A stretch of DNA of 32,000 nucleotides from Halogeometricum borinquense DSM 11551 (GTDB lineage: Archaea; Halobacteriota; Halobacteria; Halobacteriales; Haloferacaceae), in NCBI RefSeq assembly GCF_000172995.2, contig NC_014731.1, forward strand, positions 60,001 to 92,000, read 5' to 3'; not shown here. A report on this DNA, generated by a model with database tools, continues below.

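Follow-up and report, generated by a model that had tools for sequence, protein, structure and literature searches.

Every gene named in the sequence-only reading was borne out by ORF listing and by Pfam and NCBIfam scans. The complete listing was not, since an intact Orc1/Cdc6 gene in the middle of the range had been left out. In the list below, the five Gfo/Idh/MocA proteins are numbered Gfo1 to Gfo5 and the two xylose-isomerase-like TIM barrels TIM1 and TIM2.

2829-3791, minus strand: Gfo1, Gfo/Idh/MocA protein (Pfam/NCBIfam)
3882-4685, plus strand: TIM1, AP_endonuc_2 TIM barrel
4713-5870, minus strand: MFS permease
6022-6399, plus strand: RidA (TIGR00004, 147.2 bits against a cut-off of 106.25)
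6421-7161, minus strand: GATase1_like protein, translationally coupled to Zn-ADH
7161-8180, minus strand: Zn-ADH, a medium-chain dehydrogenase
8268-8969, plus strand: PIG-L, a CE14-type de-N-acetylase (PF02585, 124 bits against a gathering score of 28)
9205-10485, plus strand: Orc1/Cdc6 (TIGR02928, 388 bits against 181)
10539-11537, plus strand: Gfo2, Gfo/Idh/MocA protein
11534-12571, plus strand: Gfo3, Gfo/Idh/MocA protein
12626-13621, minus strand: Gfo4, Gfo/Idh/MocA protein
13618-14589, minus strand: Gfo5, Gfo/Idh/MocA protein
14724-15935, minus strand: PLP enzyme of the SelA/Aminotran_5 type
15983-16741, minus strand: TIM2, AP_endonuc_2 TIM barrel
Left side of the window: SBP and MalK-type ATPase
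Right side of the window: AGE-family gene and GH3

In the NCBIfam scans, no Gfo, TIM or ADH protein of the window reached an equivalog cut-off. PIG-L scored 160 bits with the BshB1 model, for which the cut-off is 182.5, and is therefore not a BshB1 equivalog. It matched structures of the diacetylchitobiose deacetylase Dac with E=8e-22, and its nearest characterised relatives are enzymes that work on GlcNAc glycosides. The Zn-ADH of the window is not of the GDH type, and the Pfam and NCBIfam scans found no chitinase within the window.

Gene order was compared in 80 genomic loci fetched around homologues of the PLP enzyme, with genes called by ORF selection weighted on conservation. Further contexts came from homologues of the PLP enzyme, Gfo3 and TIM2 and from plasmid copies of Gfo5. 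The order (permease-permease-SBP-ATPase)-Gfo1-TIM1-PIG-L-Orc1/Cdc6-Gfo2-Gfo3-Gfo4-Gfo5-TIM2, called the full cluster here, was found in at least eight genomes of four genera, including H. borinquense. Other carriers are H. limi, Halocatena marina, Haloprofundus halobius, H. salinisoli and sp. MHR1, and Haladaptatus pallidirubidus and Haladaptatus halobius; the copy in Halocatena marina is chromosomal, and most copies are carried by megaplasmids. For the window itself, the longest contig with its Gfo3 measures 339 kb, a size in keeping with a megaplasmid. An ABC importer was attached to every full cluster examined. RidA and the PLP gene lie downstream of TIM2 in the other full clusters except that of Haladaptatus halobius, which has a transposase between Gfo4 and Gfo3 and no PLP gene in the stretch examined. 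A NUDIX gene precedes RidA/PLP in Haladaptatus pallidirubidus and the Haloprofundus species. Identity to the window proteins across full clusters was 39-79%, with the lowest values for TIM2 and Gfo5. The co-inheritance on which the sequence-only reading had staked its proposal was found, as the order is kept across genera, and this recurring order in full clusters led us to reject a chance mosaic. Specific to H. borinquense is an insertion between TIM1 and PIG-L that holds the MFS permease, RidA, the GATase1-like protein and Zn-ADH. Assignment of Zn-ADH and the GATase1-like protein as IolM and IolN was disfavoured because the gene pair is missing from other full clusters. The GH3 gene of the window, which is BglX-like, and the AGE gene were rejected as core members on the grounds that they are non-syntenic in other clusters.

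In haloarchaea at large, the commonest association was that of the PLP gene with PIG-L and RidA. Simple clusters, as we call those PLP-gene clusters in which no Gfo or TIM genes were found, were seen in Haloferax mucosum, H. larsenii, Haloarcula, Natrialba, Natrinema and Halostella. They add several of the following: a CUT1 ABC transporter, an IclR regulator, a Glu_dehyd_C-type dehydrogenase, a galactonate dehydratase (595 bits against a cut-off of 311) and a GH3 protein, which in Haloferax larsenii exceeds the cut-off for NagZ-type beta-N-acetylhexosaminidases (232 against 207 bits). No glycoside hydrolase was found in the full clusters. A GDH-like gene is located in or beside the full clusters of Halocatena and Haloprofundus halobius, alongside all five Gfo genes. 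KDG/KDGal-kinase-like genes occur near PLP homologues in Halosimplex, and the PLP homologues of Haloarcula marina and Natrialbaceae A-chndr2 stand beside a PL8 lyase, sulfatases and AGE. The Gfo2-Gfo3 pair is widespread as a unit with a 4-bp overlap, and in Halomicrobium urmianum it stands with TIM2 alone. The Gfo4-Gfo5 pair was seen only in full clusters; a metagenome scan with Gfo5 gave one unrelated locus at 25% identity.

The best solved sequence relative of TIM2 was AtOGE (8BVK; phmmer E=1.8e-22), followed by 8TCS, 8TCD and 8TCT. AtOGE, from A. tumefaciens, is an Mn-dependent enzyme that splits 3-keto-O-glycosides by beta-elimination; His132, Asp163, His189 and Glu233 bind its metal, and His134 is catalytic (PMC10628242). 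All five of these residues align with identical ones in TIM2 (in YHNH, ELD, H and E), are kept in five orthologues and are invariant or nearly so in a family alignment of 26 members. A Foldseek search with the AF2 model of TIM2 (pLDDT 96.7) filled ranks 1-4 with 8TCD, 8TCR and 8TCT and put 8BVK eighth. The top folds, 8TCD and its relatives, are by their Foldseek descriptions the 3-keto-beta-glucopyranoside-1,2-lyases AL1 of Alistipes and BT1 of B. thetaiotaomicron. IolE and 3-epimerases followed the lyases with weaker E-values, and the keto-glycal hydratase AtHYD appeared only at rank 40. TIM2 is accompanied by Gfo proteins and a second TIM barrel in the window and forms a Gfo2-Gfo3-TIM2 triad in Halomicrobium. 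The logic of a Gfo enzyme with a TIM-barrel lyase, suggested in the sequence-only reading, is therefore supported for TIM2, whose nearest relatives by sequence and by fold are lyases and whose five active-site residues are kept. Judged on its alignment and predicted structure, TIM2 is a candidate Mn-type 3-keto-glycoside 1,2-lyase/beta-eliminase. TIM1 weakly resembles ketose 3-epimerases, and its single-sequence AF2 model (pLDDT 56.9) fell below use for a fold search.

The PLP enzyme is homologous to Salmonella DgaE (7lc0, E=4e-41). The DgaE sequence was rebuilt from a printed alignment and then aligned with 79 homologues. The His162-His163 loop of DgaE is reported to be strictly conserved across all DGL sequences, and Arg301, Arg332 and Arg346 were assigned to the 6-phosphate by manual docking (PMC9529869). 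The PLP lysine, Lys213 in DgaE and K219 in the window protein, is invariant in the 79 homologues, and the fold-type-I SelA-like core is present. Asp189 is invariant in the aligned homologues, Arg242 is conserved in the window protein and its homologues, and at the position of the carboxylate-binding Arg226 most homologues carry Arg or Lys. Neither the window protein nor any of the 79 homologues has the His162-His163 loop, a deletion at which the pairwise alignment places E-Y. Arg301, Arg332 and Arg346 correspond to Ala339, Gly370 and Met384 in the window protein, and Arg was found at these positions in 0 of 18 haloarchaeal homologues. Scores were below the cut-offs of both NCBIfam DgaE models (NF047797, 185.9 against 600 bits; TIGR01437, 202.8 against 385.3). 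The suggestion that this protein is a true DgaE was therefore not upheld. Since the His loop and the phosphate-site arginines are missing, the substrate of the family is most likely a non-phosphorylated 2-amino-aldonate. Such a substrate would fit the absence of a PTS or kinase and the semiphosphorylative ED metabolism that haloarchaea use. Genes for the PTS DgaABCD and the KDPG aldolase DgaF are absent from the window and from every orthologous cluster. The haloarchaeal PLP proteins came out as one clade by neighbour joining, in which those of the four other full clusters included group tightly and the window protein is attached more loosely. Members of the DgaE-like clade are also frequent in Alphaproteobacteria, Chloroflexota and Planctomycetota. 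The bacterial ones adjoin ROK regulators, CUT2 sugar ABC transporters, SDRs, creatininase-family proteins and M20 deacetylases, which is an amino-sugar-like setting.

The canonical GxGxxG/A Gly loop is present in Gfo1 and Gfo2, and the EKP motif with the catalytic Lys in Gfo1 to Gfo4. Gfo3 and Gfo4 are paralogues (48% identical) with a Gly loop shortened to G[ILV]CS[TVA]AH and with EKP and DxxxH retained. In Gfo5, CDPP replaces EKP in all five orthologues, so that the catalytic Lys is gone, and the Gly loop is irregular. The Pfam NAD-domain matches are still significant. The orthologues share these deviations, which marks them as traits of the family and not as signs of decay. ATGA overlaps join the Gfo2 stop to the Gfo3 start and the Gfo5 stop to the Gfo4 start, and from the gene arrangement we infer two heteromeric Gfo pairs, each with one Gfo3/Gfo4-type subunit. 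We know of no studies of Gfo/Idh/MocA pairs with one degenerate partner, and such pairs raise new questions of enzymology. The solved structures closest to the Gfo proteins are of a generic kind (TM0414-like 3ezy, 8w9s, DgpA, inositol dehydrogenases and GFOR), and the best PDB match of Gfo2 is 8W9S, an "NADH-dependent dihydrogenase". All window Gfo proteins scored under the cut-offs of the models for characterised subfamilies (IolG, LgdA, BT_2158/BT_2159, Gfo6 and archaeal UDP-GlcNAc 3-DH). The best score was 196 bits against 355 for IolG; the others were 25-165 against cut-offs of 350-750.

Taken together, the most likely mechanism, to which we give a probability of about 0.5 on the basis of gene content and homology, is a seven-step route of import, deacetylation, 3-keto cleavage and deamination. 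The ABC system would import a GlcNAc-type glycoside or disaccharide, which PIG-L would de-N-acetylate. A Gfo enzyme would then oxidise the glycoside to a 3-keto-glycoside and TIM2 would cleave it, after which TIM1 and further Gfo enzymes would process the glycal. The free amino sugar would undergo C1 oxidation, and the PLP lyase, with RidA, would deaminate the oxidised product to KDG or KDGal. That the Gfo/TIM block replaces a glycosidase is argued chiefly from the complementary distribution of the two, with a NagZ-type GH3 in simple clusters and Gfo/TIM genes in full clusters. The keto-/amino-sugar or glycoside breakdown route proposed in the sequence-only reading is thus partly supported and sharpened: co-conservation was confirmed, and the PLP enzyme as DgaE and the AGE and GH3 genes as core members were rejected. 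If the route is correct, 3-keto-glycoside cleavage, recently recognised in bacteria, extends to Archaea and to amino-sugar glycosides. It would also define the DgaE-like clade as a lyase for non-phosphorylated amino-aldonates and make the unknown kinase of a published proposal dispensable. The cluster provides a concrete gene set with which to address the use of amino sugars by haloarchaea after depolymerisation of chitin or glycans.

The closest parallel to the Gfo/TIM block is found in the bacterial 3-keto-glycoside routes (GlycDH/AtOGE/AtHYD/Gfo, AL1 8TCD, BT1 8TCT, Lgd and Dgp). In the AtOGE operon, a dehydrogenase for the oxidation stands with a Gfo reductase and with two TIM barrels of the "sugar phosphate isomerase/epimerase" kind, one of them the lyase and the other the hydratase (PMC10628242). 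TIM2 is nearest to these systems in sequence and fold, has the same Mn ligands and catalytic His, and is clustered with Gfo proteins and a second TIM barrel, in keeping with a logic of oxidation, elimination, hydration and reduction. In contrast to those routes, the host is archaeal, the Gfo proteins are under the LgdA, BT_2158 and BT_2159 cut-offs, and TIM1 is not recognisable as an AtHYD-type hydratase. The window also has five Gfo proteins, in two coupled pairs, with the odd loops of Gfo3 and Gfo4 and a Gfo5 that lacks the Lys. Finally, a de-N-acetylase, a PLP ammonia-lyase and RidA accompany the set, and their presence points to an amino-sugar glycoside and not a glucoside as substrate. 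Descriptions of the conserved Gfo/TIM block, an archaeal OGE-like lyase, degenerate Gfo partners or an embedded Orc1 were not found in the literature searched.

For the deamination half, the Salmonella D-glucosaminate pathway (DgaABCD PTS, DgaE EC 4.3.1.29 and DgaF) has a homologous lyase with the same PLP lysine, Asp189 and carboxylate Arg. The window enzyme probably shares alpha,beta-elimination on a D-2-amino-aldonate. Unlike the Salmonella system, the window lacks the His162-His163 loop, Arg301/332/346, the PTS and DgaF, and its PLP enzyme reaches neither of the NCBIfam cut-offs; a non-phosphorylated substrate and KDG/KDGal as product are predicted for it, whereas Salmonella forms KDPG. 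In Thermococcales, chitin is used through Dac, the exo-beta-D-glucosaminidase GlmA, a glucosamine kinase and GlmD. That route similarly has a PIG-L-family deacetylase acting on an imported GlcNAc disaccharide ahead of glycosidic cleavage, but the window has no GlmA-type glycosidase, kinase or GlcN-6-P deaminase, and its cleavage is proposed to be oxidative and eliminative with deamination at the aldonate level. In the oxidative chitin catabolism of marine bacteria, GlcNAc1A is deacetylated to glucosaminate, which a deaminase converts to KDG. The likeness to the proposed route is that non-phosphorylated glucosaminate is deaminated to KDG following de-N-acetylation. However, the enzyme families, which include the OngB deacetylase (PMC12017989), are apparently unlike the PIG-L and DgaE-like proteins, and the window has no lytic polysaccharide monooxygenase context.

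The nearest precedent within haloarchaea is an in silico route from a 2025 Natrarchaeobius genome paper, in which CE14 yields GlcN, a glucose dehydrogenase yields glucosaminate and, after an unknown kinase, a DgaE homologue yields KDPG (PMC12343721). The oxidative idea is the same and the CE14/PIG-L, DgaE-homologue and RidA/RutC families are shared; the DgaE homologue of N. versutus A-rgal3 (locus L014) is 63% identical to the window PLP enzyme. The published route requires the kinase and names a "RutC repressor", whereas we propose deamination of the free acid with RidA as an enzyme, and the missing phosphate site argues for such direct deamination. The Natrarchaeobius cluster lies beside chitinases and lacks the Gfo/TIM block and Orc1, and the window is the opposite on all three points. 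The Natrarchaeobius glucose dehydrogenase is of the Glu_dehyd_C type, in contrast to the window Zn-ADH; GDH-like genes flank the Halocatena and Haloprofundus clusters. Within the literature searched, the statement that no described archaeal pathway has this gene set consequently stands only for the Gfo/TIM half and its link to the deamination half. The deamination half is a known in silico proposal, refined here by the missing phosphate site. The authors of that proposal call for experiments (PMC12343721), and experimental archaeal work on glucosaminate or glucosaminic acid was not found in the literature searched. Phosphorylated amino-sugar catabolism is taken for granted, and this route left unmentioned, in a 2026 paper about haloarchaea that degrade glycosaminoglycans.

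Another possible explanation, although an unlikely one, is that only the oxidative amino-sugar route operates and that lyase chemistry plays no part. PIG-L, a C1 dehydrogenase, the PLP lyase and RidA would turn GlcNAc, GalNAc or ManNAc into KDG/KDGal, and the Gfo and TIM proteins would interconvert epimers via keto intermediates or serve as alternative aldose 1-dehydrogenases or lactone-handling enzymes. The best NCBIfam match of Gfo3 is indeed the haloarchaeal xylose 1-dehydrogenase Gfo6, its PDB matches include the C1-acting glucose-fructose and aldose-aldose oxidoreductases, TIM1 resembles ketose 3-epimerases and an AGE/mannose-isomerase gene is adjacent in the window. Within 10 kb on either side of the PLP gene, Gfo2-Gfo3 also occurs mostly where a GDH-like gene is absent (L001, L003, L007 and L010 against L011-L019 and L065, with both in L013). 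On the other hand, the full clusters of Halocatena and Haloprofundus halobius have a GDH-like gene plus all five Gfo genes, and the relatives nearest to TIM2 are lyases whose catalytic His it retains. Both the CUT1 importer and the glycoside-type PIG-L point to a glycoside, although no glycosidase accompanies them.

It is improbable that the Gfo and TIM proteins form an iol- or moc-type route for inositol or an aminocyclitol, in which the substrate would be a GlcNAc-inositol-type conjugate or an inosamine, with its amino part left to PIG-L and the PLP enzyme. The best NCBIfam matches are of this kind for Gfo1, Gfo2 and Gfo5 (IolG), for Zn-ADH (IolM) and for TIM1 (IolO), and IolE is the sole NCBIfam match of TIM2 (57 bits) and a good fold match too. 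The TM0414-like 3ezy of T. maritima is the first or second PDB match for Gfo2, Gfo3 and Gfo4, and relatives of PIG-L include MshB, the deacetylase of GlcNAc-inositol. However, these scores are far under the equivalog cut-offs (IolG 196/355, IolE 57/290, IolM 212/450 and IolO 44/300), and lyases rank above IolE for TIM2 in both sequence and fold. IolB, IolC, IolD, IolJ and IolA are absent from the window and the orthologous clusters, and the IolM-like Zn-ADH is missing from other full clusters. With the PTS, DgaF and the remaining iol genes all absent and with IolG and IolE below cut-off, the locus is, as the sequence-only reading had it, neither the Salmonella dga route nor a complete iol operon.

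Less probable still is that the stretch holds no single pathway and is a plasmid mosaic, in which unrelated sugar genes have collected at a replication origin with its orc1. The intact Orc1/Cdc6 with its ORB-like element in mid-stretch, the predominance of megaplasmid copies, the insertion between TIM1 and PIG-L in H. borinquense and the Haladaptatus halobius cluster, with its internal transposase and without a PLP gene, would all fit a mosaic. Order and orientation are nevertheless kept over four genera and on a chromosome despite 39-79% protein identity, sub-modules recur independently with unchanged partners (Gfo2-Gfo3-TIM2, and PLP with PIG-L and RidA), and three gene pairs are translationally coupled. 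A biosynthetic cluster, in which a UDP-GlcNAc 3-dehydrogenase-like Gfo and the PLP enzyme alter a nucleotide-activated amino sugar on its way into a glycan or cofactor, is very improbable: the archaeal UDP-GlcNAc 3-dehydrogenase model does match Gfo2 (165 bits), some sources so name Gfo3 homologues, a NUDIX gene is present in the Haloprofundus and Haladaptatus clusters and PIG-L is BshB1-like, but scores are far under the cut-off of 450, the PLP enzyme is DgaE-related and RidA-paired and not of the DegT/aminotransferase type, glycosyltransferase, nucleotidyltransferase and flippase are all absent, and an ABC importer is always attached.

The Orc1/Cdc6 protein is intact, with Walker A, Walker B and sensor motifs and a winged helix, and GKTGTGKS, VLDEID and GDARKAI are conserved. 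It is 67-70% identical between clusters, about as the enzymes nearby. Its gene always takes the position between PIG-L and Gfo2 and precedes Gfo2 by 35-55 bp. On the upstream side of orc1, 8/8 clusters have an almost invariable element in single copy, CATTAC-N12-GTAATG-N4-(A/T)CAGGTGAAACG(A/T)GGGG..GGGGG; the remaining intergenic sequence around it is not conserved. The motif had no match in 1.52 Mb of other fetched loci. We take the element to resemble a euryarchaeal ORB with its G-string. A search with the canonical ORB pattern TCCAGTGGAAAC at up to two mismatches gave no match, and the conserved element deviates from it at three positions. One ORB-like element is conserved per cluster, and not several inverted ORBs flanking an AT-rich unwinding region. 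Such a single site is compatible with an origin, an autoregulatory site or a regulator's operator, and does not settle the choice among them. No IclR or TrmB regulator was found in the full clusters within the stretches examined, and IclR is present in many simple clusters.

The lyase route can be extended to include this gene. Non-hydrolytic cleavage of amino-sugar glycosides would proceed in Archaea by oxidation and elimination, the enaminone formed by TIM2 from a 3-keto-2-amino(acetamido)-glycoside would be resolved by RidA or the PLP enzyme, and Orc1/Cdc6 with its single ORB-like site would have been recruited as a dedicated transcription regulator, in place of the IclR of many simple clusters, and not as a replication initiator. 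We regard this combination as doubtful. As a gene set conserved in order, the cluster gives archaeal carbohydrate metabolism a well-defined lead that can be tested, drawn throughout from comparative sequence evidence and with Orc1/Cdc6 as an unexpected component, and the pairing of Orc1/Cdc6 with an invariant cis element in a metabolic cluster offers a tractable case for the roles of many orphan haloarchaeal paralogues. In the window, the element spans 9086-9140 and is followed by a TTTATCA box. The window also has an 11-nt perfect inverted repeat, the left arm of which has no visible conservation elsewhere, on either side of 150 nt of lower GC.

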